DNA from: Balanoglossus misakiensis
Lineage: Eukaryota; Animalia; Hemichordata
DNA length: 64,000 nt
NCBI GenBank assembly: GCA_040954595.2
Contig: CM082588.2
Span: 1,867,027 to 1,931,026 of the forward strand
Reading direction: 5' to 3'
The notes under the pieces were generated by a model. It worked only from the letters and a program-made list of their open reading frames with translations, was not told where the DNA came from and searched no databases. The stretch's first letter is position 1. Each line of letters starts with the position of its first letter. This document shows, in pieces, positions 27,925 through 62,404 of this stretch. The translations under genes were made by a program, and so were the position numbers.

Positions 27925-30901
27925 ATGCTGCATTTCGATGATGTTTTAAAGTATGTACTAGGGGAGTTTGGGACATACCAGAAGCGTTGTATATCATTAG
28001 TGTCTCTGACTGCCGTTGCAGCTGGCGCGAGTGCGTACACGTTGGTTTTCATTTTGGCGCATACGGCTTCTTGGTGCCAGCTGCCGGAGCCGAGTCAAGC
28101 CTGGTGCGAAGGGATGCCTCGGGATGAGTGTGCGGAGATGGCGAAGAATCTAAGCATACCGAAGCAGATGGTCTTTGATGGTTGTGACATGGTTGAGGCG
28201 TACAGTCAATGTCACCGTTACGATGTGACGTTGGAGAACGTATCTTCTTTGAGTGTGATTGGCGACAATGCGACTCGGATTAAATGCGACCATGGTTACG
28301 AGTATGACACGTCGCAATACACATCAACCATTCCACAGAAGGTAGGATTATCATTAATTCCATATGGTACACAAACTTTGCAAATGACACATGGTGGGAT
28401 GAGACTTCAACGCCTTGGTCGTTTTACATTATTGGCAGTAATACTACCTTGCATTTTTCCAGCATAAGATTTTGTAAACTATTGGCTTGTCTCGTAAAGC
28501 CAGGACTTTCAGACCACACCCGTTCTTTTACAGTTCGACTTGGTTTGTGAAGACAGTTATCTCGTATCCCTTTCTCTATCAATAGCCATGGTTGGGCTAT
28601 TCTGTGGCGGTATCATATTTGGACACATCACGGACAGGTATGAAAGAGGCTTTCTCCATGATCATTCAACAGTGTTTCACTGAACATTCGTTAACTGAAA
28701 CTCCCACACATATCTCAATGTCTGTACATGTGATTCTTCTACATTGTAGGTTTGGTCGCAGAACGGGCATCGTCCTTTCTGGTGTTGCCATGTCAGTTTT
28801 TGGAACCGTCTGCGCATTCTCCGTGAACTTCTTAATGTTTTGTGTTTTTCGATTTCTGTGGAGCGCAGGATCCTTCGGTGTTTGGATTGGCGGATTTGTT
28901 TATAGTAAGTGTTCAATTAAAATAATAATTTAATGGTTTGGGACTACCATTTATCTGAAAATCTGTCCCCGATGCCTCAATCTCATCTACCCCTTTTTAT
29001 TTTATTTCCCAGATACGGAAATTGTTGGCCCATCAAAACGAGTGTTCGTCGCGATGATCAACTCGGCCTTATTCGGTGTAGGGTACCTATTGATTGCATT
29101 GGTTGCATACTTCGTTCGTGAGTGGTGGCATCTGAATTTGATAGCATCGGTTCCCTGCGCTCTGTTCGTCATATATCTATGGTGAGAATACTAAACCCTT
29201 TTAGCCGTCGGCCCAACTCTGTGCATTTATTGTATATTTGTAGATATTTTGAAGTGTACTTTTGACTACATTCTACAGGCTTGTCCCAGAATCACCAAGA
29301 TGGCTTCTTGCAGTTGGAAAAACAGAAGAAGCAGAGAGAGTCATCAGACTTTTTGGACGTGAAAACAATGTCAGTGTTCCAGAGAACTTGAACGACGAAT
29401 CGTGGAATCCGAACAGAAAGGTAAATCGCCTTGTGTATAAAACCTTGTCATGACACACTGTCTCAATGCGCTTAGCAGAAGAAGAGTCTGCCTGTCTGTA
29501 TACATAACCACTTAGTTATGTGCATCTTTATATATCTCTGGTACATCTCTTCTTTGTAGGACTCTCGCAAAGACGACGACGACGATGACAAACAGTACGG
29601 CTTCCTTGATTTGATAAAATCTGCAACCATGGCAAGAAGGACTCTCCTGTTATGTTTCAATTGGTGGGTTAACGCATACTCATTGTTTTTACAAATATCG
29701 ATACTGGGTGCCTGGTGAGAGAATTAGACTACAGCTGCAGTTCCAGGAATAACGATGCACACCTGTCGTGTTTACTGGGTTGAAAGGTAGCCACATCTGA
29801 ACACCACAAGGGGAATCAAACACATCCTTTCTTCTTTCCACAGGTTGGTAAACACGTCAGTGTATACTGGTATAAGCTTCAATACATCCAACCTTGGTGG
29901 AAATGATTACATTAATGCTGCTATATCTGCCGCCGTCGAGATCCCTGGCGCTTTCCTGACTGTTTTCGTCGTCGAACAGAAAATCCTAGGACGACGTCTG
30001 TCCATTTTCTTCTCCATGATGATTGGTGCCGCTGCGTGCTTTGCCTCACCCTTTATACCGACATGTGAGACTAACTCATTAACAAGCTAAATGTCATAAT
30101 AAAATCAACTACCTTGTTTTTCTTTAAACATTTCAATCATATCATCTTTTTGTTTCAGGATAAGGGCGGTGAAGGTCGTTTTCTTTGGGTTATGATCTAT
30201 ATTGATGAGTTGACGAGTGTATACTATTAAGCACTGAACTATTCTGATAGTTGAAAGGATTATTTATTTCGTTCATTTTTATCAGGTGGAGACCTTGTCT
30301 GGATTAATATTGCAGTGGTCATGTTCGGGAAAATGTGCCTTGTCCTGTCATTCAATACGGTGTATGTTTATTCAGCAGAATTATTCCCTACTCCATTCAG
30401 GTGAGAATTATTGGACGCATTCTTTTATCAACCACTAAAACTGCCACCTCACGACCACCCCACCCCACACCTCACTATCTACTATATAAAACCCCACACC
30501 CTATCACCCACAGGTCCACTGCCGTCGGCGTGTGTGCAACTGTAGGCTTCATAGGAAGTATCGTGGCGCCACAGATGTTGCTACTGCAGGAAATATGGCC
30601 GCCCCTCACTCTGGTCATTTTTGGTTCTTTGTCCGCCATGGCGGCGATTCTGATTCTGCCCTTGCCGGAGACGCGCGGAGAAAATCTTCCAGAGACTCTG
30701 ACAGAATGCCAATTCATAAAAAGGTTTGGTGTTCTGCCATTTTTTGCATTATTTTCATGTTTTTCTTTTAAACTTACTTGTCTATTTACTCGGACATACA
30801 GATTAATGATTTTCTCTTTTTACAGAAAGGGCAGTGACATGGGGACGCAAACTGAAGAAATTGAAATCGTTTCTACAAACTCTTTGCAGGAGTGTGCGTG
30901 A
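27925..30901 (+). CDS. SLC22-family organic cation/anion transporter, paralogue B, 10 exons
   Basis: Motifs: [84 protein letters not shown]. Exons 27925-28341, 28534-28637, 28750-28904, 29013-29181, 29279-29420, 29560-29663, 29844-30064, 30286-30400, 30514-30723, 30826-30901. Confidence 0.93.
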
Positions 30902-32002: not shown

Positions 32003-35000
32003 TCATTTCAAAATGGCGGCACACAGTGAAAGCGCTACCACCAGGAGTGTGTTGGCAAGGATTCCAGACGCACCGCAGACTCCTTTCGTGTAAATTTGCT
32101 TGGTGTTCTCTATCATCCAATCATAGGCCGGTTTATTTTTGGTAAACAGTCTGTCGCCAACCACTTTTCTGATGTCCTGGTTGTATCTGTTCATCCAATC
32201 AATCTGAGAGAAAGACACGAATATGCTTCAATGCAGGAAATCATCTTAAGATTGATAACGAGGTTCTTGGTAAAAATCTAATAATTACCTGGTCTGGTGT
32301 TAACATTTCGAAGTTAATCAGGTTGTATTGGAAAGGTACAAACGCCACTTCTTTAAACGTCATCCACGTTTGATTTGCATAATTTTCCTGCAAATGAAAA
32401 ACCATGTATGATTTATTTCAACAATTGAGTGACAGAATTCTCAGCTGCATAAAACTCACATTTCTAATCACAAGCATAAAGGATTAAACTGTAGCCCTTA
32501 CATATGTTCGTCTCTGTTTCACCGTCACAGCAGTTCCCAGACGAACGCCAAAATTGTTTTCCTCATAGTAACCAGGTTCTGAAAAACAAAAAATAAATTG
32601 TTCAACGTTCAGAGCAGAAAACGCCAAGACTGACAATAGGCTTTGTGCAAACTTATGTAAGGAAGCGGAAGTGGACCTACCATTCGAAAGAAACATTCCT
32701 TCGTGCAAGGGTTCTTCCCATGCTGCTTGGGTCTTTCCGAAACGTTCAGGTCCTGGGGGAAATATTTGAAGTAGAAAAAATGAAATGTGTCATTTCAATC
32801 AGTCAATGTTCCTTTGATTATGAGACATCTACATTTCTACGTTCTTCTGTGTTTGTTTGCAGCACTACAACAGGCTTACCTTCACTGACAGAGAGACCGG
32901 CCCCTATACCATGGCCGTTACCATGACCATAGTCCCAGCCATGTTCCCAGAGGTATCTCCTAGCATGGGCGTCTAAGGCGCTACCTGCAGGGGAATATTT
33001 TATGAGTTAGAATCCAGTGTTCTTGTGAGAATAGAGAGAATAGGTTGAACTCAACGACGTTCTCGTAACACTCACCGTACGTTCTTTCTGGGAAAACCGT
33101 CAACGATAAATCTATCGCTCCTTTCAAAACACGGGTATATGCTTCCTATAATTAAAATAGAAAAACATGATAATGAACACGCGACTTTCCTATATAGATA
33201 GGTGTTTCGAGTTTGATTTACACCCACAGCACATACGTAGCGTATTCTTTACAAAATCATAAATCCGTGTGTATGGTTCCTTTTGCAGGTAGGTTAGGTG
33301 TGTATAACATTACCTTATGATACCATTCTGGTGTTCCAAAGTGAAATGTTCTCGCTGTGTCCGTTGTTGCTCCACACCTTAGCCAGACAAAACAAGGAAT
33401 CTGTGTTAAAAGCATGTTACAAGTATTCGACATTACCGTGGTCATAGCCACCTGTCCGAGGGATGGTACTCTGCCTGAGCATAGAGAGTCATCATCAATT
33501 TTACGATAACTGCAGAGATCAAAAAGTGCAATGTACTATGAAACTTACTTGTAATGGCCGCCCGAGTCTAAGATGTACATGTCTGTGTTCGTGATTGGAA
33601 GGTTGGTGTCATCAACAGCGCTGTAAAATGAATGAAACATTTTCATATAATATATTTCTAGTCATTTGAGTGTTACTATGTTCGTAGCATCCCAAGGTAA
33701 AGATCTAGAGATCTGGTAAGATTTTGTCATCAGGTATTTGTGTAATATTCCACACTTACTCGTAGTGTATGACAGCTCCGTTTAATCCAAATGCCGATAT
33801 AGGTGAAAAGCTCTCCGTGATGAAGTCCGGTTGTTGCCTGGATAAGTAAAGAACATTGTTAAATTATAAATCATTTCTGCTTTGGCAAAATTCAGTGGGT
33901 GCATACAGGGCACAATCTCTAATTCAAATCATTACAAGAAGATGATGGTATGAGACACACATTCCTTTGAATATGAAATACATACATCCTAAATTCGTAT
34001 GCTTTTTCTTCACATATCATTTCACTGAGTAAATTGATGTCACCCTTCGCCCTTGGAACCTGGGCAAGAAAAAAGAAAACAAAACATGTACATTTTATCG
34101 CGTATTATACATGACGTCAGCAGATATTTCTAATCAAATGCAGACAAAATGCCTTTCGTTCATGTCAAAGAGAATTTATAAAAACTGATATGTGGCACTG
34201 GGATTACCTGGTCTTCCAACCAATGGGAAAACTCGACTAGGGCAACGGAGTCTTGGATCTGCAAACAAGGAACACAATTATTCGATTAACATGGTGAATT
34301 TGATCTTTGTCCTGTCTGAGTAAATACTTCTTAATACCAACGAATTACAACAAGACTTCATAAAATATTTTGTGACTTACATTGCCTTCTTTCATTGCAC
34401 TTATCTCCGAAGGGTTCTTGATGGATTTCATCAAGCTGAGTGGCGACTGTTTCATCATGCGCTTTTTCTGAAAAGAGGAAATTAATAAATTACATGAGTG
34501 AGTGAGGAGTGACCATCCAGACGTCGCCTTCGATATCGAGTTTTGGTTTTCAAGAAAGTGACTACTGACTTCACTGTTTGTTTTCACACTAACCTCTGGT
34601 ATGGTCGAATAGATAGCATAGCTGGCGTCCTCGCTGAACCAAATCCGTTGTATTGACGTCATGCTTGCGTATTTACCAAGCTCATTGTGAAACTGTTCGT
34701 AGTCGAAGTGTTTGACGCAGTACTGGGTTTGATACGTGACGTCACAATTCAGCTCGTTGTCGTCTCTGTCCAGATTCAGATGGTCGCGTATCTCTCGTTC
34801 CTGTACCTTCTCGCTTTGTATGAACACACTGTCGATAAAGAGAAAATCGATTCCATTCACATTTTTGGAAACCTAACATTGCCCCTTTTCTCGAGAGAAG
34901 TAGCCAAAAGTTACCACTTTTGGTTCTTGGTCGCATAAACTGCTTCACATCACAGGTGGAACCCCGCAACGTACTATATACTTATCAATTCTCACGACTT

Positions 35001-37513
35001 CAAATAGGTTTTACTACCTAGGTGAATGTAAAAAATCTCAAGAAAATGGCGGATAAAAGTTCAATACGTACATGGACTCCACAAATGTTATGATGGTATA
35101 TGTCGAGTATAGTGGGTTGTATGGGATATCAATACCACGCAAGTTGTACAGCCCTGAAAAAAGAACAGACAGAATAAGGTGTACAAGTCTCCAAGATTGA
35201 AAATCACGTTGAATTCACGAAATGTTACACAGAGATTTACAATGTATTGAGAACGCACACTTACATGCACTTTCGTCCAGAGAGTGTACAACAAGCATGT
35301 CAGCCAGGTATTTTCTCATTTCTTTACGAATTTCCACGATCTTGTTGGGCCAAGTCATACCTGTGGATAGAAATGCGTGTGAAAATTGATGAACCATTTC
35401 GACGAATAACTGTGAGTTGACCGGCCAATTTAGTGATTACATTGAGATGATCGCCATGAAGCACCAAGACGTCAAAGTCGACCAAAAAAGCAAAAGCTCT
35501 AAGCTGCTGAAACAGCTTCCCTACTGTCTATTGTGTACGCAAGAAACTTTGCGTGCACGTCACCCACCTGCCCATGATTCCTCAAGGATGAACAGTCGTT
35601 CTTCATCCGGGCACACCGGCCTGGTGTTCCAAATTCTGTCCACGAGGTTGTCGTCATATTCATACATACGAAGGTCCTTGTAGGAATGGGAGAATGTCCG
35701 CGAGTAATATTCATATTGTTCTGTAGTAAAAACGACATCACAAATAAAAGTTACTTAAATAACTTCTGGGGAATCTACCATCTTGCGGATGGATGGACGT
35801 AGAATGTACGGATCGATCGATATCATGTATCATCTAGGATATACACTTACTGGAAGACAGTAGCTTGGGGTCAAAGGCCACGTCGGACTGCGTCGGCAAC
35901 ACCTTCTCTAGCCATTCCCAGGGCTCAGCAACTCCATAGTCACCTATGTTGAAGGAAATGGAACACTACCTGAGTAAATGGGAGATTCTTTGTCCATAAG
36001 GGGTTATTTCTGATAGTGAGGATGGTTTTCGTTCGTGACATCTCCATGCACCAACATGGCAAAGCCTTTTCCGCGTTTCTACGACCCAGGTGACTTGTCG
36101 CGTAATATGCAAATACACTGCACACATTATCTTTCGTGACCTTTGAACTGGGTTATACTCACTTGCCCTCATCAGCATCCAGTTGCAGTCCAATTGACGC
36201 TCTGCTTGGATGTAGTAACGAGAGTCAGTCCACAAAGCCGATGCATTATGCGTTACGATAGCTAGACCTGCAAGACAAAGTCAATACCAGTATGATCTCA
36301 TGCATTTAACAAGTGTCTGTGATTCTAAACTCAGAATATTAATTTTTGAATTACCTGACGAACCGTCGAAACCAGTCATCCAATGTCTTCGCTTATCGCA
36401 ATTAGCAACAAATGTACTCTGTAGGACGGACAAAAAGAGAAAGTTAATAAGTTTTTGCGTTACAAAGACACATACAGGCTAATGTAGTACAAAGCAAAAC
36501 AAAAATCCTGGCACCACGACTCAAATTCACAATGGAGAGCAAAACTTGTAGACTAACCTGATGAGCATCGCCTGAAGGTATGATGTAAGCTCTGACGAAG
36601 CGTCCACTCCCAGAAATTGCTCTCATCTCATCACGGAGTGCTTCTATTCTCTCCGTCGTCAAGGTAACAGTGGGTGGATAGTACTGATAGAAAGCACATA
36701 AAAGTCTTGTCAATTTCTCTCTCTCATCTCTCTCCCCCCTCTCTTTTCTCTCGCTCTTCCCTCTCGTTCTCTCTCGTTCAATCTCCCCTCTCCCTCTCTC
36801 CTTACCCTCTCCCTTTCTCTATCTAGACATATACCGATATCACTCTGTGCTTACCGGGTTGTTAAGGTTCGAGCAATCCCTGACGTCACTGCTTAGAATC
36901 GCAGCGCCACTGCTTCCAGCAGTTTTGAGATTGAGAAAACCATATCTGTTGTAAGTGTTCCCATCGATGAACTTCCCAAGTTCACGTGGAGTGTAACTTC
37001 TCACGACGTTGACTGCAGAAAGAGCAACAGAATTCAGATCGACGTTTTCCCTAGATAGCATGTGACAGCTCTCTGCCTGATGTCTAAGGTAATTTCTCGA
37101 AAAATGGCACCTGGCACAACCACATATACAATTGCAAAGGATGTTTCACAACGCGACGAACAATGCAAGGCGTGGGCGACAGGTGTGTATGTACCTACGC
37201 AGGTACTAGTATTACGGTGGCTCTATTTTTGTCATATGCTTCGGTTGTAATTCATGTTTCCTGAATCGTACAAGCTACCATTTCGTTCAATCACAAATTC
37301 ACATGATTTCTCGAATGACTGAATCAATATGCTGCCAATGTGTTTTGGCCGGGAATGATGGCCATAGGTATTATAACGGTAAATAATAAACCGGAATATT
37401 AACCCCGTGAGCAACGACATGGCAGCTGTAGGCTACTATTTATAGTATTGCTGGTATGACTTACTTGTGAACACGAATGTTAGTAACCAGAAGAAAAGTA
37501 GGCGCCCCATCAT
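32003..37513 (-). CDS. XPNPEP2: Membrane-bound Xaa-Pro aminopeptidase (M24B), XPNPEP2-like, multi-exon
   Basis: Signal-peptide exon 37465-37513 ([16 protein letters not shown]) splices in frame to 36855-37012 (..[11 protein letters not shown]). Then [61 protein letters not shown]-like, [10 protein letters not shown] and [14 protein letters not shown]. The last exon ends in a hydrophobic GPI-type tail ([26 protein letters not shown]). Not all internal exon borders were traced. Confidence 0.88.
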
Positions 37514-38652
37514 CCAGAAATGCTTTCCGTCGATCCAGTCAGCACAGGATCTTCCCCAGATCGGGACAGAGAACACACACAGGTCAAAGAAATGGCGCCC
37601 AGTTGATTTGGATCAAATCTTGTCAACTGAGAGCACTACGTCACTTCCATGTAACTGGCAGGAATGTGGTTAATATTTGATAGTTCTGAAGTGTGGGCAC
37701 TTGGTTTATCATTAACCAGGTGCAAACGCACAATACTAGACCAATACAGTGAGGTTATTCTCCGGTCACACTCAAACATGGCTGGGTGTGGAGAAGCAAA
37801 GAATCCATAGTTTCACAGTGTCCAAAATGTTCTGAACTTCGAGAATGTAAAAATAGATAGAGAACATACAGAACGCCATGTCTTATAAACTAATCTCATT
37901 TATTGCCCTTCAAGCCATTCTGTGAAGACACCCTTAACCAATTATACCCCAAAACACTCCAGGTAAATTAATGCATTGAATGCTACAAAGAAAATAACAC
38001 TTCTTAAAATAAATAAAACTTCAAACATTCCTGAAAGTATCATAGAACGACCTGATCTCGATTTCAAGACAAATGTGTCTAATTACTCATGATTTGTGTT
38101 GTATTGCATAGCCGGGTACAAAATTACCGCTCAACAGAATCAATTTCTTGCACTGGCCAATAATCATTATTCCATTATTTAATTTTGTGATGCTGTAGTA
38201 CTATCCTTAAAACAATTAAGTAGTACATGTATAAATATTCAAGCAGTCAATAGGAATATCTGCAATTTGTACTCTATACAAGTGAGAAAACAAAGTACAT
38301 GTATCACAAATCATCATAGAGGTAGTTTGACATGTCCAGTGAAAACACAAAAAAAAAACATCTATTAAAGAACTATTGGTTAAGATGAATAAAACACAGG
38401 AAAGCGATGAAAATAAAATCTACTTCACCCTCTGACAACTAAAAGCAAGTACCTCATACCAAAGTGCCAGTCCAGGTACCTTCCAAGTATTCTGTTCAAA
38501 CCGGTATACACAGTCCAACCCACAACATGCCATAAACATGCGTTTTCCAAGTAAGAAAACGACATGGCCAGTCACCCAAGCTCCCATCTACTGGGACATA
38601 GCATGTGTCGCAAACATCATAAACGGGAAACAAGTCCATCATGAGAGTCTCT

Positions 38653-41600
38653 CTACATGGGTTTTTGTTTCCAACTGTTTCCTCGCTTTGATTTCTTGGA
38701 GGGGACAATCTTGGCTTTTCCTCGTCCAATTTTGACAGGTTTACCTGGCAGGAAGTGAACAAATATAACAGGTTACTTTCCAGTAATTCAAAGGTTGTTT
38801 GCACAAGTGTATCTACATGTATATCGCATGAACTTGACTGGTTTTCTGACGTTGGTTGTATGTTTTCTTCACTCACCTGTTGACAGCGGCATCTGCTGAC
38901 CACTGTACATCAGCATCAGGTCAGGTGACCCTTCCGTCTGTTCGGTCAAGGTCACCACCACAGTGTCGTTTCGGATGACGAAATCCATCGCTGATCCCAG
39001 ATAGTTGATCCCTGTTATGTTAAATCCGGTAGTGGCTGGTGGAAGCACCGGATTGATGGTCAGACTGTCCTGATACAGCCGGAGTCCTCCGTAACCGAAT
39101 AAAACAGCTTGAAGGAAACCTCCCATTCCAGTACAGAAGTTGATAGCCCCGGTACCATCGGAAACTTCTGTCCAAACCTATGAATAACATGACAAACATT
39201 TACCGCAATGATCAGGGAAAAAATTTCATGACAAGCAGCAGAAATACATGCATCTGAGATACACACACCTACAGGTCAAATAAACCAAGATGTTACCATT
39301 AAATGTCCAAAGCTTATTATCCACTTACTTTGAATGGCTCTTGTATGTTAGCAAAGCTGCGGTTGAAGAGGGAGTTGGCTCTGTCAATTTCTCCCAGCTC
39401 TAACCACCCAATGGAGAACATTCCCCAGGTCATGGCTGGACCGTGGCCGTCGGTGTATTTCTCGTAGTAGACAAGGTCATTCCTGCGAACTTGTTCACTC
39501 ATGTTTATCATGAGGGGGAAGCCCAGTAATATCACATCAGCTTGTTTCACGATAGTACCTGCAATATTTTGAATTATGCATGATGAATGAGCCTGTCATG
39601 ACGTTTAATGATAAAACAAGTGAGACCTTATCACAGCTTACAGAAGACGACCACTCACCATTTGTGTAGCTGTCATACTCGGGATGATACTGTTTGTCCG
39701 TGTCAAAGGGAATGTACATGTTATCAGCAATATTCTTCCATTCTGGGGGTACACTGGCGTTGATGAATTGCGCAGCGTAGTAGGGTAAATTCAGACTGAT
39801 CTGAGCCACTATGTTGGTGTACACTGAATTGTTGACATTCTGGTGATACTCGTCCGGTCCCATTACGTCTGTTAGGATGAAACATATACACAGCTGTATG
39901 AGTTGTAAGATTATTGCAAGTTGTCATGGGTACATGTACCTGGCACATTTAATTTTCAGTTCAGGTTTTATGAAGACATCATTGTATGCATCAAACTTTT
40001 TGGGAAGGAATTTCAAGACAAACACATCTGACTAAATGACATGAGATTAGGTGAAATCTCTTTTGGTGTGAATTACATCTAACCACAGTAACACAGCCAG
40101 TGATAACCTCTGTCCACACACGGGCTTACCATGTATGACATATTTATTTTTACTCGCATCCCACTTCGCTCGGCATTTCCAAAAATCGGCGATACTTCTG
40201 ACGGTATCAAAGCCTTGCTTCGCAGTTATGAAATCAAGATCCTCTGTGGCAGCTATGTACTGCTGAATGGCAAAAGCAATATCTCCTGTAATATGCTGTT
40301 CGTAGTCCCTTGTATCTGGCGCCGGATCCACCTCCAGCCCTGGAGGAGAGAAACAATCACCAAACATACATGTTTGTTGGAAAGTGGATATCTCCAGTAA
40401 GTCTTACCATTTAGCACATAGAGTTTCCTGCTCTGATCAAACTCAACTCTGTTGGCCCAAAACTTTGCGACATCGGTCAGTAACTCAAATCCCCGATGCC
40501 TGAGCAGAAAATCTCTGTCCCAAGTTGTGGAAAGATATTGCTGAAAGGCGTACGCTATATCTCCTGAAATGTGGACTTCGTTTTTGGAATAGATTGGACC
40601 AGGACAAACTTCTAAACCTGAAGAGATAAGAGTGGTTTCCAAATCTTAAGCTGAATTTTGAACAGACACGAGTCTGAATGATGGATGGTTCCAATATTTC
40701 AGTTTTAAATTTATGATGGAGAGAGTGAGAAAGAGTGATAGATGTCAACATGACAGGAAATGTAGCAGGCCTGTTTACACATGCAATTTGCATATGTCAT
40801 CCATGCAGTCACTGTGGATGTAAAGGGAGTGACTTTGACAGAGCAGGAAGTTGCATTCCAGTAAATATAAAGTTGAATGCTTCATTAAATTTTACAATTT
40901 TAACTGATGAACGCTTGAATGAAATACCTGTATAGGCACTCTCCCATGGGAACTTGGCACCAGTGCAGCCAAAATCCTTAGCATTGACTTTGGCAGCGTC
41001 AAGATGCAATGTCCGGTACAACAGCATCTCTTTGGCAAGCGACGGATAAAACATCAGCATGGTCGGGTACATCCAAGTCTCCATGTCCCAGAACACGTGA
41101 CCTTGATAATCAGCTCCCAGGGCACCCTGAGCCAGCCCACCAGGACTCAGACCAAAAAACGGAAACTTGAATTCGGGATCGGTCAGCAATGGTGGCAGGG
41201 AGCTGAGGATGTAATACATGCTGCCGTAAATGGCCTTGCTCAGGTAGAGGTCGCCCTCGAGGTCGATTTTACCACGATTCCACTTGTACTCCCATGAGTT
41301 GACATGGCTCTGATAGAGCTTATCATCGTCAAGTGCCATCTGCATTCCCAGCTTGTAAAAGAGTGATGCCTGATTGTCATCCAGGGCCATTGAAGTCAGG
41401 AACGTCCACTGCTGTTTTGAGCTGGATCCGGGTAATGTGATTTTGTCTGGCAAATCCGTCCAATAGACAAACACTACCGGCTTGCCCGAACTGGATGTCT
41501 CAGGTGTTTTGATTGGCCCAGACATTGACCAGACTCCTTCTTTCACTGGATTCACTTTAAAATCAATATCATTGCTCGCTGGACCAAGGTTCATTTTTAA

Positions 41601-42625
41601 ATCAACTGTCACAGGATCTGTAGATTGGCTTTTGCGGGTGATGATGATGTCATTGACAAGAAGACGTGTGTAGTACTGGTGGGCGTAGACACGTTGCTGT
41701 ATACTAACAGTTGGAGTGTCAATGTTGTAAAAAAATACACCTGGGAAAAAAGTACAAAACATATTAATACTGAAGCATTATACACGAAAAGAGGCCCAAC
41801 CTTTATAGAAACAATGGATTTGGACTGGTCCATAGTGGTGAAAGGTTAAGACAAAGGTTAAGACTACTATAGGAGTTTACCTTTGCCAACGTCCAGCGCA
41901 AATGATTCATTCTTATCTGCAGTTTTGCCAGCCACCCCTCTCAGAGATAAAGTGATTGCACCAGTGGAGGGGATCCTTGCACGGTGGCTGTGTTCCTCGC
42001 GACCATTGTAGACACCGTTCATGTACACCGTATTACTGTACACAACTGAAGATAAGTAACCATTGCCTACCGAGGCCATGTATCTGGAGTTACTTGGCAA
42101 TCTGCATCGAAGAAATTAATTCATTTGAGCTCACATGAACAATAAAACATTGACGTTTGTAAGTTCATTGCAAACCAGGCACTTGTTTTGAATTTCCAGT
42201 AGCTTGTACTGAAAGCAGTGTTTATACTGGGGCTCTGCTACAAGTCCGCCAATCATTATTTCACCAAGAAAGGGTAAATTGTTTATCTCAGTAATATTTT
42301 AAACTTACTTATCTGATCGGAAGACAGTCGGTTCTGAAGACAGGTCCTTTATGTCTTCCTTGAAAAGAAGCTTTGGGTTTTTCATGACTGGTTCTCCTTT
42401 TAACAAGATACCAAAGTCAGCATTTTGAAACTCCACATCCAAAGGCGCCTGTTTATTCATCAAGTGGTCCTTATGAACGTCCTCTTTGTCTTGATGAAGA
42501 ACTTCATTATTCAGTTTGCTAGGAAACCTGACTTTGTCTTGTTTGGATTGAATGAGAGCACCATTGAGGTTTGTTATGAGAAATGCTGCCCCTACCAGTA
42601 GTACAGATGCCCTTGATGTCATCAT
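38653..42625 (-). CDS. PGGHG: GH65 protein-glucosylgalactosylhydroxylysine glucosidase / acid trehalase-like (PGGHG/ATHL1-like) with N-terminal signal peptide
   Basis: Motifs: ASVGNGYL, FGLSPGGL, YQGHVFWDMETWMYP, AKFPWESAYTG, VMGPDEY, VKQADVILLGFPL, GPAMTWGM, GMGGFLQAVLFGYGGLR. Exons 42309-42625, 41881-42101, 40928-41740, [40408-40617 or 40130-40339], 39659-39868, 39329-39558, 38877-39177, 38653-38744. Confidence 0.9.
40130..40617 (-). other. Duplicated, probably mutually exclusive 210-nt exon pair (40408-40617 and 40130-40339) of the GH65 gene
   Basis: Identical length and phase (1-1), canonical AG and GTAAG ends, homologous peptides (GLEVCPGPIYSKNEVHISGDIAYAFQQY.. vs GLEVDPAPDTRDYEQHITGDIAFAIQQY..), separated by only 68 nt. 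Confidence 0.85.
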
Positions 42626-42649
42626 TCTGCAGTCAAGAAAATAAAGGTT

Positions 42650-42715
42650 ATCATCACCACCAACACTACCACCATCATCACAACCACCACCACCATCGTC
42701 GTCGATCATCATCAT

Positions 42716-42784
<69 letters not shown>

Positions 42785-42787
42785 CAC
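42650..42787. repeat. (CAT)n/(CAC)n microsatellite just upstream of the first coding exon of the GH65 gene
   Basis: Long CAT run; it produces the artefactual poly-Met in ORF 42305..42913. Confidence 0.9.
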
Positions 42788-44689
42788 ATAATTGATCATA
42801 CGAAAATAACTCACACTTTTACACGTTTGTCCGGCTGACCAATCAGACCATGAAATGAAGGCTGGCGATAGTATGCAAGTAACTGTAAGGTTTCTGCTGT
42901 CTGCGCACCACAAGGTGACACCACACCTCCGAAATCGTCTCTGTTACAGTTCCACGAATATATATTGTATATTTACTCTTCGCAGCGGCTTCGATATCAA
43001 TATTTTCTCTGTAGAGAGCGACCCTGAACTAAGTCACATGCCCGTCACACTCGCCCGCATCATTCAAGAGTAGAGAACTTCTAAACAACCACATTGAGCA
43101 CCCCTAGCTTTGTTTGATTTCAAATATTTATATTTTATCTAAAAACATGATAAAAAGCAGTGGTATTTCATACTTTCTGACAGTGAAGCAATAATCACAA
43201 ACAGATAATGTATATGTTCGTGCACAAACATTTTTTCTCTCACACAGTCTTTCCTGTGGTTCTCTCTCGATCATGATATCATCTGGAGAAATGTACATGA
43301 AAGAAACATCATGTCTACTGTGTTACGCAGTCCCACGGATCGGTGGGCGGGGCACAGTGGGCGTTGCCTGCTGGTCTGCTGCAACTGAACACATCAGTAC
43401 GTGTGGAAATCCTGTCTAAACATTTCACTTGATGTAACTTTCATTATTGTCTGAAACCTTGGCAACAGTGGCGCACTGCCCTTGACATTCCTTGGACCTA
43501 TCCGCGTCGGTAACGAAGCTAATATCAAATTGAACAGTTTATGTATAGGAACACTATAAATAATAGTAATAATAATAATCTAAAATATAAATAAGCGGAG
43601 TTTCTTTCAATAAACGCAAAAATACTGCGATTGATTTGCTTGATATTTTCTTAATAGTGAACGAGCCTGTATTCCGTCATCCGTACATGTACTGGGTAGC
43701 TATAATACATGTAATTCATCGCTCGTAGTAGGTCATCGTTTAGTGAATGTAATTTGTAATGGATTGTTAATGTTATTGTGCCGCCCAGGGGGATGTCTTT
43801 GTGATACAAACCAGGGTCACAGCGAAACGGTGCGCGACAGAGGCTACCTGTTTTCCATATAACGGTGTCCTGTTTGTTTACAATCTTTGAATGGATCCAC
43901 GAAGGTGTAAATTTGTGAACATGGAATGACAGGAGATGTGATTAATGTTCTGCCGCTGAAAGCGTCGCATGTTTGAGAGAATATTTAGGCGAATCGCGAG
44001 AAATTTAAAGTGGAAGGTGGTTGGTTAAGATTTCATCGAGTGGAATACGCCCAGTCGCACAAAATAATCGGACAGCAGACGACACACGAGTGTCAGTTCC
44101 GTTCGATCCGTCGACGCGTTGCTGTTTTACGATGTACGACGCGACGGTATATTTACGACACTCTACCTGTGATCAATGTGCTTAATTAATATGCTACACT
44201 GATCGTGTTCAGTTACCATTCAACAGGTGGGTAACCTCACTTCAATATTCCCTAAATCCGCTGGCGAGCGAGCCCCCTTGTTGATTGTCACATTTCGCGA
44301 TGAAATATACATGTACACGTTTATTGGTGATCATGATGAAACTTGTATGCCATTGGAAATTTACAACATTCCATCAACACAGTTACATTACATACGTTTT
44401 TATATCCAGACACTTGAGAAGATAAGTACTCGAGTATAATAATGTCGGTTGCCATGATTACCTAACGACAGCGCTAACATTGTCTGTCGCCATGGATACC
44501 TGATGACAACAACGCTCTCAACCAATGAAAACCCACTTCAGCAGAGTTCACTATAGCTCTGCTCTCAGCAGCAAATTTAGGGATTCACAATGATTGTTAA
44601 GGGGTAATGACTTTAAAAACACGTCCATGTCACTTTTTTTATATTAAACTTTAATTATCTGTAGACAGTGAAGCTATAATTGTTTGAAC

Positions 44690-53981: not shown

Positions 53982-56792
53982 CTTAAAAAGAAAGAGAGAG
54001 AGAGAGTGATTGGTTGATTGATTGATTGATTTGACTATGGACGTCACCCTCGAGATTACCAAGTGTATGTCACGCAAAACTAACCTTCAAATGGAGGCTG
54101 AGAGTCACATGCACGCAGCAATAACACGATCATGAATACAGTCACGCATATTCCAGAATATCCCGACCTTAAAACCATAATTTTCGCGTCACTTGTCGCC
54201 CACACTCTAAACAGTCGTGCAGAAGTGAATGAATTGATGCAACTTCACATGCAAGCGTTATAGGCGTGCAGGTCTATCTTTCCCGCGGGAGATTCGACGC
54301 CTACAAAATATGCCATTCAGGGGGGGGGGGATACAACGCTATTACGAGGTTCCCATTAAAACGATTGAGCTGATGGTTATTATCCCCAATCCAAAATATG
54401 AATATCTTACATTAGCGACGTTGATATCAATACATTTCGCGGAACAGAGTTAGACAATGACATAAAAGGTACATGATGTAATCAACTTACTTAAAAGAAA
54501 TGTTTTGCATTACTCGAATACTCTGATCTCTTTGTCGCGTTTCACTCCTAAGCAAGCCTAGACATCCGTTCGAGCAATTCTGCCGTAAGTCATCCAACAA
54601 AGACTTTCTCTGCAAAAACAGATTCGATTTTCCCACAACACTTAATCTTTTGAAATGTTTGTACGAGCAAACACAATTGTAACTTCAGCCGTATCTATGG
54701 CAGCAACACACAGCATGTTTGGAAGTAAACTTTGCCAGAAGCTACTGTAGTTCCATAAATATCAAACATCAGAAGCCAAGCAACAGATACCAACGAGAGA
54801 AATTACATTCCCATCAGGCTGAACATGCTGAACTAGAATTCATTTGTCTCCATTGATAGAAAAAGCCAACATCTTTCAGTTCTTAGTAAAATGCAAGGTT
54901 ATGGGAGGGCTACATCGGGTATCAGGACGGTTATATTTTCCCACCTACCGGTGGAACTTCACAGAAAGTTTCACATTTGTCTTTGAACCATTCAGAGAAT
55001 AGTTTTGCACTGTGACCAGACTGAGAGATTGGAAATTCAGTCGAGTGCGGGCGCCCAACATTCTGCGACCCGAGCAAGTTGTGGAGGTCGGGCAGTGCCC
55101 GCACACGACTGTCGTGCCCTATTTATAGGAGGGTTGAACACATTTAGTGCACGTCCACGTCAAGCCTGATATAGCGGGATGATTTATCTGCGAAACACGA
55201 TACAATATTTAAAAAAATATAGATGCAATGAACTCTCAATAAAACGTTAAACGGACGCGAAACGTTTGATAAAAGTTCGCATGACTCTAACACCAATTGC
55301 CTTCCCTGTACTATAAATACCATGCAATCATGTCTAAGAACAAGAAACGATCAACCAAATTCACCCTTGACACGAATCAGTTTTGCTGAAACCATCCAAT
55401 GCACTTATCTGCACACAGTTTTATGGATCTCCAGTTACAGCCTCGTCAAAACTAATGGGGAGGTTATGAGAGGGCGGTCGTTTATCAGTCTTTTATGCGA
55501 AGCAAACGAACGTAAAGTTCAAAATACAGCTTATCGGGCTAAAAGAGCGTCGTTCACTCTGAATAGCCAGTGTCAAATAACAGTGTCTTTGAGAGGCTCG
55601 AAGACTGGGGAACCAAGTCGCCCAAATTATCATGCATGGCCGAGACATGAAACGAATAAAAGACAATTACAATAGATATAAACCACTACTGTTATAAAGA
55701 TTGACCCAAAGTGACCAAATGATGTTGCTTTTATAACACACACACAGACACCATCTGTCTTCTGGTGACCTCATGGCCGAGGAAAGTGCTTGGCTGTTGA
55801 CTTCCTTATCTAATTTGATTACCATTAATTCACGCAATCTGACAGCTGGCGATTGCTTTTGAATAGTTTACAGTTGTTTGGAAGAGTATGCAATGGGTGT
55901 GGGTGACGTAACGCCGAATGCATAATTATGGTGATGTTTTAAACAACTGCTCTCAAAATAATTTGTCGGCTGAAGATAGTTAATTGTATTAAGGATAGGG
56001 TTTCCTCTTTGTTGTGCTTATATGGCTTCGGACACACGACATGCAACACTTGTCAGATACATTTGTCGTTTGTGTTTGGGGTTGTTTCTCGCGGATACAA
56101 TTACAGCGAGTCATCGGATCAGCATCAGGGTCGACCAATATCAAGTTTTATATCATTTAATACTACAGTAATTAGCGGTTTATTGCAAAATCCACTTTAA
56201 ATAGCTGGTCGATTGCAGCCATTGTCACATGTACGTTCATCTCTCCGCGCTGTGACATTTAACCCCACAGGGAGGGCCGCGCGATGCCAGCGCGCGACTG
56301 ATTCATATGGATTGCGTTAATTTGAACCGTACCATTATCAGACCCAGTGCGAAAGCAAACCACGGAACGTTGCGGGTTTAACAAGAAACGGTAAAATACG
56401 AAATCAACAGTTCGCCAGGCTGCTAAAGAGTTCGCGAAAATTTAACACCCGTACTAATCATTTCTATAACGTCAGCCACAATTGAGATTCCAACATCGGA
56501 CCAGAATAATCACCGCAGATTTGTGGATATGCACAATCGTCGAGCAGTGATCGGCCTATTCATTGTGTGAAGCACACAAAACCATTCGAAGTGTGCTTTG
56601 CATATGAATACTGCAAGGCTCTGGGTCAAACAGTGGACAATAATTATAGGTAATACACAAAAGCAGCTGTATACTGGCGTATGACGATCCAACATGGGCG
56701 TAGATGAGTGACTGGCGATCGTAAACACCCTCCAAAAAGACAACTCGCATGGGGATATGTACGAGAGACTTCAACTTGCGGTAACGTCCATT

Positions 56793-58733
56793 ATGGTACG
56801 AAATGTGTTGCTTAGGTTTTGTATATTCTGGAGCGCTTTGACGATCTCGCTGGTGACGGCCAACAGACCCGAGTATGTGGTGGAGCCGAACAGTACAGTG
56901 GTGACAGAAGGGCGGACAGCCATATTGGCCTGCTCGGTGGCCAATCTGGGCAACAGGTACTTTATAATGTGGTTGAAGGATGGTGTATCGATAACGTTCA
57001 ACGCCACTGTTTATAATGAACGACTGACAAACCTTTTTGGAGTTGTCGAACCGTCGAGATATAGCATTGTGGGAGACACCTGGATCGGAGAGTTCAATTT
57101 GCAAATAAGGCACACAGCCGGAGCAGACGCTGGTGACTATGCTTGTAATATATATGAAGGGCCACCCTTTTTTGGCCAGATTGCGTCGTCATCGAAGGCA
57201 ACACTAACGATCGAAACCTTCCCAGCTGGAGACTTCCCGAAGTGTTTTCCGTCAGAACTAAATGACTTTTATATAGAAGGGGACACGGTCAATGTAGATT
57301 GCATATTCAGGGACGCGGACCACATACCCGAGTTGCAATGGTTTAAATCAGGGATGTTGGTGAATGGCGAACGTTTATACAACAACTCTCCGTCATACTT
57401 GACGTACCGATGGCAGTTGCATGCCGACGACGACGGCAAAAACGTCACGTGTGTCGCCAACCACACTTTGTCATGTAACGTTGGACCGGTGGAAGTTTAT
57501 TTTAAGCCGCGGCCGTCAATGGTCATCACGACCGTTGACGTCTTTGTTGGCGAAGCCGCCGTTTTTATGGTTCGCTCCAATTCAAATCCATCCCCTTCTT
57601 TGTACGTGTGGTCGCTGAATGGCATGAACATCGACGACGGCCTGTCTTTGGGATTTGCCGTCAGCGGACCGAACTTGACGATTCTGAGCGCCCAGTACTC
57701 GGATAACGGTTCCACGGTGACGTGTGTGGTCGCCAACATCGCCGGGAATTCGACTGCGAGCGCAACCCTGATCGTTCGGCCCCTCCCCACAACCGTTCAC
57801 ACCAGTGAGCTCACCAGTGCAACGACAACAAAATCTCGAACGACAGACACCGAGGAGACATCTGCGGGCAGCACGGCTTCGTTCGCATCGAGCCCGAGGA
57901 AGGAAGAATTCCCCGTTCTGGTGATCGGGGTAACCGCAGGAGGAGCAATAATATTTTGCATCGCAGTCTTGGTGGCTGTTTCTGTTTTTGTTTCTTCGTG
58001 CAGGGACAAAAGGAGAAGGGATGATGCCCGCAACAAGCATGAAGCCGCATCGGGACACTTCCAGGCCAACTTATTCATTCAGGACGGAGATGTTCACGTG
58101 CGTGCGCAGCTGCCTCCGATACAGCCAGCAAATCAAAACGCCCTGTCAGACAGCAACAGCGGGAAAGTATACTACGGATCAAATCGAAGGGTCCACGTTC
58201 GGAACATCTTTTCCCAAGAAAACGACGACCGCGGCGAGTCGCCGACGGACGACAGACAGAACGAGGACAACGAGCAACGAGACAGCGAAAGAGATGTCGG
58301 CGGTGGCGGCGACGACATAGAGGGGGTCGTCATCGCCAATCCAAGTTTTACGGAGAACAACACGGGCCCAGACCCGGACATCATTCAAGACACACAGGAC
58401 AAGTCGGAGACGGAGACGAGCAGCGAAAGTGACATCAAGCGACGGTCACAGTCGTCGGCCGTTGAGGACGCCCTGGCGGGGATCATCCCCGACTTTCATT
58501 TCATATCCGACGAGAGTACCACGGACGACGGACAGTCGGACTACGATCACAACTTCAGTGATCTGGGAATAGACGGCCTCGACATGCCGATGTACACAAA
58601 TCATCCACTACCCATGGAAGAAAACCCAAACAACACAAACTGCAACAATATAGAACTGGAAAACGGGGACAGTAATGCGGATGACACAGATTCCAGTAAT
58701 CTCGCAGGAATAAAGCTTATGTATGTAGACTGA
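56793..58733 (+). CDS. Intronless type I membrane Ig-superfamily receptor (3 Ig domains, Kirrel/CADM-like), long acidic Tyr-containing tail
   Basis: Signal peptide MVRNVLLRFCIFWSALTISLVTA. V-type Ig domain (ILACSV..WLKDG..FNLQI..DAGDYAC), two further Ig domains, Thr-rich stalk, TM (VLVIGVTAGGAIIFCIAVLVAVSVFV) and ~240-aa tail. An upstream in-frame ATG at 56757 is an alternative start. Confidence 0.87.
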   Translation: MVRNVLLRFCIFWSALTISLVTANRPEYVVEPNSTVVTEGRTAILACSVANLGNRYFIMWLKDGVSITFNATVYNERLTNLFGVVEPSRYSIVGDTWIGEFNLQIRHTAGADAGDYACNIYEGPPFFGQIASSSKATLTIETFPAGDFPKCFPSELNDFYIEGDTVNVDCIFRDADHIPELQWFKSGMLVNGERLYNNSPSYLTYRWQLHADDDGKNVTCVANHTLSCNVGPVEVYFKPRPSMVITTVDVFVGEAAVFMVRSNSNPSPSLYVWSLNGMNIDDGLSLGFAVSGPNLTILSAQYSDNGSTVTCVVANIAGNSTASATLIVRPLPTTVHTSELTSATTTKSRTTDTEETSAGSTASFASSPRKEEFPVLVIGVTAGGAIIFCIAVLVAVSVFVSSCRDKRRRDDARNKHEAASGHFQANLFIQDGDVHVRAQLPPIQPANQNALSDSNSGKVYYGSNRRVHVRNIFSQENDDRGESPTDDRQNEDNEQRDSERDVGGGGDDIEGVVIANPSFTENNTGPDPDIIQDTQDKSETETSSESDIKRRSQSSAVEDALAGIIPDFHFISDESTTDDGQSDYDHNFSDLGIDGLDMPMYTNHPLPMEENPNNTNCNNIELENGDSNADDTDSSNLAGIKLMYVD

Positions 58734-61126
58734 CAGGTGCACGTGCATACACCAATTTCGTCAGGAGAACAAGCATGTATGCCGAGACCGGTCACTGGAA
58801 GTGTAACACGCACCTCCTCGAAAACACTTTTCTGGTTTTAGAATATAAAAGCAAGGATGACCTACCCTACATACATCGTCACCGCGGCTTAGTGCGCTTT
58901 GAATTCGTCTCTAGGCGTGTAACTGACGCTTGAGTGGGGCTCTGACGCTCTTCGAGAAGTCTTGACCCAGCACTGTTCATGCATGGCTGCAGCACGGGCC
59001 ATCTCTTTTCTCCATTCATCGAGCCTATCACGGTCATGACCCCGTCACATGATGAAACGCTCGGTTGTGTATTCAAATCAACGCGTGTTTTACTGCTTTC
59101 TTATAAATTCATTCTATACGTGTAAGGAAATATCCATGTGTTCACCGAGAACCATTAGTAACCATTTGCAATTTTGTCTATAATCTAAAACTTTGAAAAG
59201 CTTCCGTGCAAGTTGATCCTGGTAGCGCAGAGCATGCGCACCATTGACGCGATCAACAGGTGTTTACAACAGCTCCGACCGGTGAAACTCCGCAATAGTG
59301 TATGATCTTCAGTCCATATTTCTCACATCCGCTTTTATTACAGAATCACACTTAATATTAATGTTTATCAATCAAATTCACAACGTTCTAATACTGTACA
59401 CAACCATTTACGGCTATCATGTCGGTATACGCATGCGTAATGCATGAGACATAGCTTTGTAGCTATACTTCACCGACGACATATTGACAGAACTAATGGA
59501 ATCAACGCTCAATTAGACCGGGTGTTTGTTGAATGTCTCAACAAGAACTCAAGAAGACCCAACTCTACGTAGATTGCTTTGTTACCTTGGCGCGAATTCA
59601 ATATTTACCCTTCGTTCTGTCCCCAAAGTGTGTATGCGCATAAATTGACCAATTTCCTTCTATTTTTATTCGAAATATTAAAGTCTGTAAATTTACAGTA
59701 TTTTTATGGAAACTGTACAGTTTACCTTATACGAAGCTGTAACTTTCTTGAAAACAATTTGGTATCGATAACATTGTCATTTTGTATTTGTATATTTGAT
59801 ACTGGCACGACATTATGGATTATATTAGTGACCTATTTTTATATATCTGGCGCACTTGCACAGTCTCGTTCGGATAACGACTGTTTTGAAATACAGAAGT
59901 GATACTCTTGATAGACAATCTTGAATTCTGGGTCACATTTTGATATTTATATATTTTGTATAGTTTTATCATATGTGGACTTTGTGTGACAATCGTCATT
60001 TCAGAGGTAATATTAAAATTTATTTTTAACCACTCAACTTATTTAAGACGGGGTTTCAGTCCATTTAAAACAGGATGCAAGTTTCGGTCTGGACGTTTCA
60101 GATAATATTTTGTGCTGACATACATAACACTTGTAGAAATGCTTCCTCGACAAAGCTTTACAACCCAATCAAGTCAGTAATAGCCATGCGCAAAGGCAGA
60201 ATAATCAAGAAACACCCTGTTGACTATTTATAGATCAAAGCACTTCTAACACATGCAGTTTACATGGGCGAAGGTACCAGCAAAGCATTGCCCCTAAAAT
60301 GACCTCGAAAGTGCGCTTACATTGTTGTATGTCCTATCTCGAGAACTGCCAAACATGACACAAAATCAAACACCAGACCCCCTAGCTAAAAACAAAACCC
60401 AGACGACATCTGCCATCTTCTGTCCCCGGTGTAGGGTTATCGCAAAGCCTCGTGTCTTTTTATGCTATTCAGATTTTGTGTACAGACTGGTATTTTATTT
60501 TTCTCTTTATCTATGTCTGTTTATACAGCGTAGCTGGCTCTCCCGTGATAAGAAACGATTTCCTCCTTCTCTGTTCATATTCCTGATCCCGTTATTATTT
60601 CGGACCTGGTTCCTGTGCACGCTTCCTTCATTGATCTGCTCTGACACTTTCAACTATCTGCAGCGATGCGACCTTGTGGTTCGAATTTGCTGCGGAGTGA
60701 TTTATAATTATGACTCATGGGATCAACGCCCATAATGACCGTGCCGAGATCAACCAATTGCACTGAGATAATATTTAATATCATATTCATTAGTGATTAA
60801 TGTGTCTGTTGAACAATATGTAATGCTCAATGGATCTGACCCATGACACAGCAGAACGCAACTCAGTCAATCGGGAGACGGCGGTGGTGACTCATATGAA
60901 CTGAGGATATATAATCCGACCAAAGCATCGTGAAACCGTATCGCTGAACATTGTGGGTATAGATCCTTCGTGAGAAAAAAATCACGCTAATCAAAATTTA
61001 TTTAAAATATAAATAGCTCGTAAATGTTAATGGTCTTAGTAATCAACTGCATCAGACATTCTTTTTTTTATTTGATGTTTGAGATCTCTAGGAATTACGA
61101 GCACGGTTCCACAAGAAGAAACGACG

Positions 61127-62404
61127 ATGGCGCGACACGAGTGGCTTCGACTGACCGTAGTTTTCAGCGCTTTGACGTTCTCGCTGGTGACGGCCGACAG
61201 ACCCGAGTTTGTGACGGAGCCGAACAGCACAGTGGTGACGGAAGGGCGGACAGCCATATTGGCCTGCTCGGTGGCCAATCTGGGCAACAGGTACTTTATA
61301 CAGTGGGTGAAGGATGGTGTATCTATAACATCCAACAACTCTGTTATTGTTTATCGACTGACAAATGAATTAGGAGTTGTCGAACCGTCGAGATACAGCA
61401 TTGTGGGGGACACCTGGATCGGAGACTTCAGTTTACAAATTAAGCACACCACCGGAGCGGACGCTGGTGACTATGCTTGTATTATATACGAAACAAGTCC
61501 CTATCCTGGCCAGCTTTCGTCATCACCAAAGGCAACACTGACGATTGATACCTCCCCAACCGGACTCTACCCGAAATGTTTTTCGTCAACTTTAGATGAT
61601 TATTTTCTAGAAGGGGACACGGTCGACATAAACTGCATATCCAGGGACTCTCACTCCAAAACCAAGTTGGATATGTTCAAATCCGGAACACTGCTGAAAA
61701 GCAAACGATTATACACCTCCCTGCCTGACATTGTGTACCGGTGGAATGTGTCCGACGCTGACGATGGCACGACAATTACGTGCAATGGGAACGGAAACCA
61801 AACGTGCAATTTCGGACCGGCGAAAGTGTATGTCAATCCGCGGCCATCAATGGTTTCCGTGGATGTCGTTGTCCTTGCCGGCGAAGCGGCCGTATTTCTG
61901 GTTCAGTCTCACTCGAACTCACTCCCTTCAACGTATAGCTGGTGGCTGAACGGCGTGAAAGTTGACGCCAGTTTGTCGCCGAGGTTTTCCGTCAACGGAC
62001 CGAACTTGACGATCCGAGGCACGCAGCTAAGCGACGACGGCTCCATGGTGACGTGCGCGGTGGCGAATGTCGCCGGCAGTTCGACCGTCAGTGCAATCTT
62101 GCGTGTGCGGCCTGTCGCGATGACAACCGAAATGAGCTGGCTCAACCCACCAACACTGGGCCCGTCTGCCGACAGCAAGATTTCAGTACCGGGGATGCAC
62201 CACAAGGATAAGCACGCGCTGCTGATTGGAGTAACCAGCGGAGGCGCCATTTTGTTTTTCGCCGCCGTTGTTTTCGCCGTTTCTGCGTTCGTCTGTTCTT
62301 GTTGGGACAAAAAGAGGGGGAAAGCCCGAAATAATGGAAGAATTCGGCACGCCATCTGGTGTTCGAAAAACACCACCAAGCATAACTTGCCCACACGTGT
62401 ATAA
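61127..62404 (+). CDS. Intronless 3-Ig-domain receptor paralogue with a short tail ending in -TRV
   Basis: Signal peptide MARHEWLRLTVVFSALTFSLVTA. Ig domains are colinear with the 56793 gene. TM LLIGVTSGGAILFFAAVVFAVSAFV and a ~35-aa basic tail. Confidence 0.87.
   Translation: MARHEWLRLTVVFSALTFSLVTADRPEFVTEPNSTVVTEGRTAILACSVANLGNRYFIQWVKDGVSITSNNSVIVYRLTNELGVVEPSRYSIVGDTWIGDFSLQIKHTTGADAGDYACIIYETSPYPGQLSSSPKATLTIDTSPTGLYPKCFSSTLDDYFLEGDTVDINCISRDSHSKTKLDMFKSGTLLKSKRLYTSLPDIVYRWNVSDADDGTTITCNGNGNQTCNFGPAKVYVNPRPSMVSVDVVVLAGEAAVFLVQSHSNSLPSTYSWWLNGVKVDASLSPRFSVNGPNLTIRGTQLSDDGSMVTCAVANVAGSSTVSAILRVRPVAMTTEMSWLNPPTLGPSADSKISVPGMHHKDKHALLIGVTSGGAILFFAAVVFAVSAFVCSCWDKKRGKARNNGRIRHAIWCSKNTTKHNLPTRV

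Follow-up and report, generated by a model that had tools for sequence, protein, structure and literature searches.

The window, that is, the whole 64,000-nucleotide stretch of Balanoglossus misakiensis DNA that was analyzed, carried a PGGHG-like GH65 gene on its minus strand (Table 1). The nearest relatives of its exon 3, among 90 hits from 1906 candidates, were PGGHG-like proteins of Ptychodera flava (79%) and Glandiceps talaboti (75 and 74%). Pfam matches above the cutoff were identified for PF03632 in exon 3, in both alternative exons A and B, and in the exon that follows them, and for PF03633 in exon 7; the two alternative exons covered the same part of PF03632 (positions 108-167 and 108-169). 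The adjacent multi-exon gene at ~32200-37600 on the minus strand displayed a Creatinase_N_2 match and 21 introns of 85-452 nt, and by its motifs we take it to be Xaa-Pro aminopeptidase-like. Further along the window, two long stop-free frames with immunoglobulin domains lay close together on the plus strand (56712-58733, 673 aa, and 61076-62404, 442 aa), and ABC transporter exons together with a weak MFS transporter match were located at 3515-3862 and 8157-8678 (both minus strand) and at 30308-30898 (plus strand).

Table 1. Coding exons and selected features of the GH65 gene, in window positions.
Feature	Position	Strand	Content
Coding exon 1, ATG at 42625	42309..42626	-	Hydrophobic N-terminal segment, then low-confidence linker
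Coding exon 2	41881..42101	-	N-terminal beta-sandwich begins
Coding exon 3, common to both isoforms	40928..41740	-	Asp398 (human Asp301); Trp445 and Glu446 in the +1 subsite
Alternative exon A, 210 nt, phase 1-1	40408..40617	-	Second half of loop 3, two barrel helices, beta-hairpin; PGGHG-like loop
Exon A residue 9 codon, Tyr (human PGGHG Tyr364)	40589..40591	-	Gap-free alignment
Spacer intron between A and B, 68 nt	40340..40407	-	Two branch-like sites, 10 and 51 nt from the donor
Alternative exon B, 210 nt, phase 1-1	40130..40339	-	Same structural unit as exon A; W-E-T-type loop
Exon B residue 9 codon, Thr (CsKP Thr417, FjGH65A Thr407)	40311..40313	-	Alignment
Shared exon with catalytic acid Glu527 (PDE motif; human Glu430)	39659..39868	-	
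Shared exon with KQAD motif	39329..39558	-	
Shared exon with general base Glu671 (human Glu574) and GH65 C-domain	38877..39177	-	
Last coding exon, stop codon 38655-38653	38653..38744	-	

Alignment placed the catalytic residues Asp398, Glu527, and Glu671 at the positions of Asp301, Glu430, and Glu574, the residues compared for human PGGHG (PMC10077716), and all three were encoded by shared exons. The general base also occupied the position of Glu616 in FjGH65A, and the presence of both the catalytic acid and the general base indicated that the worm enzyme is a hydrolase and not a phosphorylase. The gene grouped with other ambulacrarian copies (SH-aLRT 94), the fork with respect to the vertebrate PGGHG clade being open in the same tree, and enteropneusts carried several GH65 paralogs. 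The protein differed from the vertebrate form at its hydrophobic N-terminus (window 42625-42550, minus strand), a feature of six out of six invertebrate homologs checked that was absent from the toad homolog. This segment is likely a signal peptide or anchor, and secretion or a lysosomal location is likely for the protein, in contrast to the vertebrate form; the linker behind it had a pLDDT of <50 in models of the Ptychodera proteins. A GAT trinucleotide run was also observed at ~42700-42790, just upstream of coding exon 1, with a frame that stays open into this exon.

The central feature of the gene was the tandem exon pair A and B, for which the positions, lengths, phases, and translations agreed with the original prediction of two homologous 210-nt phase 1-1 exons separated by 68 nt. 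The two could be aligned gap-free with 113/210 identical nucleotides and 30/69 identical amino acids, an identity that was reached in 0 of 100,000 shuffles (maximum 14). Both exons were intact, as had been claimed, with open frames, AG acceptors behind pyrimidine tracts, and the donors GTAAGA and GTAAGC, their strength being judged by consensus reading. A third copy was not detected by tblastn within the window, where the best other match had an E value of 0.15. Third-position GC content (GC3) was 0.43 in both alternative exons versus 0.55-0.61 in four shared exons. The reading frame encoded 797 aa with either exon, 867 aa with both, and 727 aa with neither, without an internal stop in any of these forms. 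A frameshift or stop codon as the guard of exclusivity was thereby ruled out, as both the A-B join and the double skip stay in frame.

Orthologs of the pair were identified in further enteropneusts. In P. flava, the automated RefSeq models X1 (XP_070568257.1) and X2 (XP_070568258.1) carry consecutive accessions, have 803 aa each, and differ at 40 positions that all fall within 460-528, corresponding to the alternative exon segment. X1 was of the B type (59/69 identical to B of the window) and X2 of the A type (54/69 identical to A), such that RefSeq models represent separate one-exon isoforms for the Ptychodera ortholog. When the swapped segment was left out, the window protein was sister to its Ptychodera counterpart (82%, SH-aLRT 99), as expected of an acorn worm that is probably a ptychoderid. 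A Saccoglossus model contained A and then B in the same order, joined in frame. Taken at face value, the join speaks against strict exclusion. Little weight was given to it because the model is partial, lacking the N-terminal half and ending in sequence assigned to a different Pfam family (PF12537). Glandiceps instead had an A-type gene and a B-type gene on different contigs, each model with one copy of the exon and each gene with one member per cluster; outside the segment these paralogs were 88% identical and sisters (SH-aLRT 96), suggesting that a gene duplication may have let each paralog keep one exon.

The four species with both classes belong to three families, and identity was 45-59/69 within a class compared with 26-33/69 between classes. 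A tree of the 69 segment columns recovered an A clade of the four species (99/94) and a B clade of the four species (99/99), with the bootstrap unsettled; A and B as each other's closest relatives gave an AU p value of 0.403. Schizocardium is presumably a spengelid, as is Glandiceps. The pair would be more than 370 million years old, with the ancestor of Ptychodera and Schizocardium dated to >370 million years ago (PMC11175523).

Outside this gene, a swap of the exon was not found in 25 cluster-mate pairs of annotated proteins (6 + 19) covering echinoderms, amphioxus, bivalves, Priapulus, and other enteropneust paralogs. Among other deuterostomes, the pair was seen in Ptychodera and Saccoglossus and not in echinoderms and amphioxus at the level of protein isoforms. 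A HMMER search of 1.84 billion representatives identified one close B-type match, the Saccoglossus model (E 2.8e-42), followed by a match at 1e-13, and no close B-type sequence outside enteropneusts; of the five multi-stretch matches besides Saccoglossus, three were inspected and none of these was an exon duplication. A metagenome scan with exon B returned 14 loci, none of which was a close relative or had two copies. Neither the vertebrate proteins retrieved nor the papers searched contained a duplicate of this exon or a swapped isoform, and a literature search of titles and abstract openings, mostly from journals without subscription, found no report on a GH65 or PGGHG exon switch. The Ptychodera isoform pair is already present as an automated annotation, and the A/B exon pair is a new case of a known phenomenon. 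Two Priapulus caudatus models of 784 aa, P0056 (X2) and P0153 (X1), differed by three residues that were all inside the swapped segment (alignment columns 456-470), and may reflect either a recent duplication of this exon that arose independently in a priapulid or an artefact of the assembly. Five mollusc and coral models of 1146-1979 aa (P0007, P0008, P0009, P0016, and P0018) contained two distant copies of the segment with different loops, a layout pointing to tandem GH65 domains or to fused neighboring genes.

The two exons are very probably spliced in a mutually exclusive manner, and the spacer between them was shorter than all of the 28 other introns measured (minimum 85 nt). These comprised 7 introns of the GH65 gene and 21 of the adjacent aminopeptidase gene; the latter were delimited by visual inspection and verified by their GT-AG ends and by a 653-codon open frame. 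With such a short spacer, the splice donor of A may sterically interfere with the branch point of B and so keep the exons from being joined. In humans, the steric limit is reported as <50 nt from donor to branch point, a distance that 9% of clusters fit (PMC5740500); a simple pattern search placed one branch-like site 10 nt and another 51 nt from the A donor, the second just outside this human limit. Steric interference is therefore a borderline case by distance and the most likely guard of exclusivity. Whole-region duplex energies, calculated without a shuffle control, and ten short inverted repeats were uninformative as to RNA pairing or a docker-selector structure. The fold would form a second barrier, as two barrel helices would be gained on inclusion of both exons and lost on skipping of both; the original prediction of duplicated helices was in line with models of the Ptychodera proteins, which put two long helices in the segment.

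AlphaFold models of the two Ptychodera isoforms, built from 48-row alignments, formed complete GH65 barrels (pLDDT 88.0 and 87.7) in which the segment comprised the short loop 3 helix, two long helices, and a hairpin ending just before the catalytic PDE motif. The top structural matches of both models were all GH65 proteins, and the best match of both was human PGGHG (EC 3.2.1.107; PDB 9SD4-9SD8), with which the catalytic Asp, Glu, and Glu equivalents are common. Model A matched it with a Z of 56.9 and an rmsd of 1.6 over 680 residues at 41% identity, and model B with a target-normalized TM of 0.97 at 40% identity. Since model B was only 27% identical to FjGH65A, B as a bacterial kojibiose hydrolase by descent was rejected.

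Ten positions of the segment had fixed differences between A and B in the four species. Five of these were among the 13 loop residues 3-15, a range chosen from the original hypothesis, versus five among the 54 residues 16-69 (Fisher p 0.019), in keeping with the proposed conserved core and divergent loop. Across the four species, 13/13 of these loop residues were invariant in B and 10/13 in A. Loop 3 is a recognized specificity loop (PMC11442529), and in bacterial structures Trp391, Glu392, and a Thr form hydrogen bonds with the +1 glucose of kojibiose (PMC8626586; PMC8537180). At exon residue 9 (position 460), B aligned with this Thr, namely CsKP Thr417 and FjGH65A Thr407 (chain index 404, offset 3), and A with human PGGHG Tyr364. 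Together with Trp445 and Glu446 of the shared exon 3, B completed the W-E-T motif of kojibiose hydrolase (EC 3.2.1.216) in four of four species, while A gave W-E-Y, with Tyr as in human PGGHG. Next to the Tyr/Thr position were the fixed changes C/D, G/A, S/R, and N/Y. The human loop 3 type (Cys359, Tyr364) was thus found in isoform A only, B having Asp and Thr, and the earlier likening of exon A to vertebrate PGGHG was borne out, with Cys and Tyr364 equivalents in its loop; Tyr364 as a PGGHG marker comes from alignment and is not a published definition.

The W-E-T motif was shared between isoform B and both FjGH65A (7FE3) and CsKP (3WIQ), and the hydrolase-type general base with FjGH65A. These two enzymes are bacterial and only 22-30% identical to the worm models, and CsKP, in which loop 3 is longer, is a phosphorylase. 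Among 97 distinct segments of homologs, residue 9 was Tyr in 38, Cys in 21, Thr in 20, Val in 9, and another residue in 9. With Thr in 20 of 97 segments of uncharacterized homologs, this residue is no proven marker in animals, and the residue 9 classes usually occur in separate genes and here in one. The Thr-Arg pair of exon B was also present at the corresponding loop position of P0035, P0037, P0039, P0053, P0059, and P0082, which include other enteropneust paralogs and a springtail protein. Three such rows (Orchesella, Ptychodera_p3, and Saccoglossus_p3) did not group with B on the segment tree, suggesting convergence.

The best explanation, which is held with moderate confidence, is that mutually exclusive exons yield two 797-aa enzymes with the same catalytic residues and a different loop 3, A with a PGGHG-like preference and B with a kojibiose-type preference for Glc-alpha-1,2-Glc. 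In this mechanism, Tyr versus Thr and the neighboring fixed changes would reshape the +1/+2 site. Isoform A is predicted to release glucose from Glc-alpha-1,2-Gal-hydroxylysine of collagen, and isoform B would be a kojibiose-type alpha-1,2-glucosidase, working like kojibiose hydrolase at most and not being a member by descent. The original prediction of one gene encoding two specificities through splicing was supported for the either-or use, by the Ptychodera X1/X2 models, and for the swapped loop 3 with its +1-subsite residue; the trehalase switch that it also considered is unlikely because Trp-Glu is common to both isoforms and is the pattern of kojibiose- and nigerose-type enzymes (PMC11442529).

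That the isoforms differ in specificity at all is probable. It is rather unlikely that mutually exclusive splicing yields two isoforms that cleave the same alpha-1,2-glucosides and are distinguished by rate, stability, pH or salt optimum, access to protein-bound substrate, or tissue of use. The common catalytic residues and Trp-Glu pair are consistent with such an arrangement, as are the five of ten fixed A/B differences that lie outside the loop. Trp and Glu are described as the stronger determinants, CsKP Thr417 mutants retained >14% activity, and engineered motif swaps are reported not to have switched GH65 specificity (PMC11442529). Furthermore, kojibiose is also a substrate of PGGHG, with about five-fold lower activity (PMC11012932), and the title of PDB 9SD6 describes PGGHG crystallized with kojibiose. 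However, the fixed differences are concentrated in the loop, the loop of B does not vary among the four species, and the change falls on a known +1 contact (PMC8626586). Given the modest effects of the Thr417 mutants and swaps and the cleavage of kojibiose by PGGHG, the direction of the prediction is reasonable, and the difference may be one of degree and not one between two separate enzymes.

An improbable variant keeps the exclusive splicing and the difference in specificity and has B acting mainly on another glucoside such as nigerose, alpha-1,2-branched glucans, glucosylglycerol, or another glycoconjugate. Nigerose phosphorylases and dextran debranching enzymes keep Trp-Glu (PMC11442529), the rest of the B loop is unlike the FjGH65A loop and one residue shorter, and close B-type loops were confined to enteropneusts in the HMMER search; against this, all three W-E-T positions match two solved kojibiose-binding enzymes. 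The absence of a working either-or switch, with both exons co-included or one a silent relic, would fit the in-frame Saccoglossus model and the stop-free co-inclusion, but is very improbable given that intact copies of both classes are conserved in three families, that the equal-length single-exon Ptychodera isoforms both fold as complete barrels, and that each Glandiceps paralog model has a single copy.

The reading of a PGGHG-like A and a kojibiose-type B has a wider form that is tentative and somewhat doubtful. According to it, alternative splicing of one GH65 gene would have let acorn worms alternate for >370 million years between a glucosidase for collagen glycans and a dedicated alpha-1,2-glucosidase of the kojibiose type, Glandiceps would have split the two into separate genes, the natural exchange of loop 3 would bring about the switch that was not obtained with engineered swaps, and the Tyr/Thr position would sort the many uncharacterized invertebrate PGGHG-like paralogs into functional classes. 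If true, a kojibiose-type activity, so far described as the main activity only in bacteria, would occur in an animal, and the blanket PGGHG label on invertebrate GH65 proteins would come into question. The determinants of GH65 specificity are only partly understood (PMC11442529), and isoforms identical outside 69 residues offer a clean, naturally selected test of loop 3 as the setter of acceptor preference.

Mutually exclusive homologous exons near functional sites of enzymes are described for PKM1/PKM2, PFKP, Drosophila CRMP, and CG42249 (PMC7954323). As in the worm pair, the exons in these cases are tandem and of equal length, and they preserve the fold while altering residues close to a functional site. 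In contrast, these examples change allostery, oligomerization, zinc binding, or catalytic residues, whereas the worm isoforms share their catalytic residues and swap an acceptor subsite between motifs of separate enzymes. The separation of splice isoforms after gene duplication is reported for CALU, U2AF1, and MARVELD3 (PMC4494069), where sister paralogs each have one ancestral exon class as in the Glandiceps pair; these known cases are from vertebrates, and the Glandiceps pair would extend the separation of splice isoforms into paralogs to an invertebrate.
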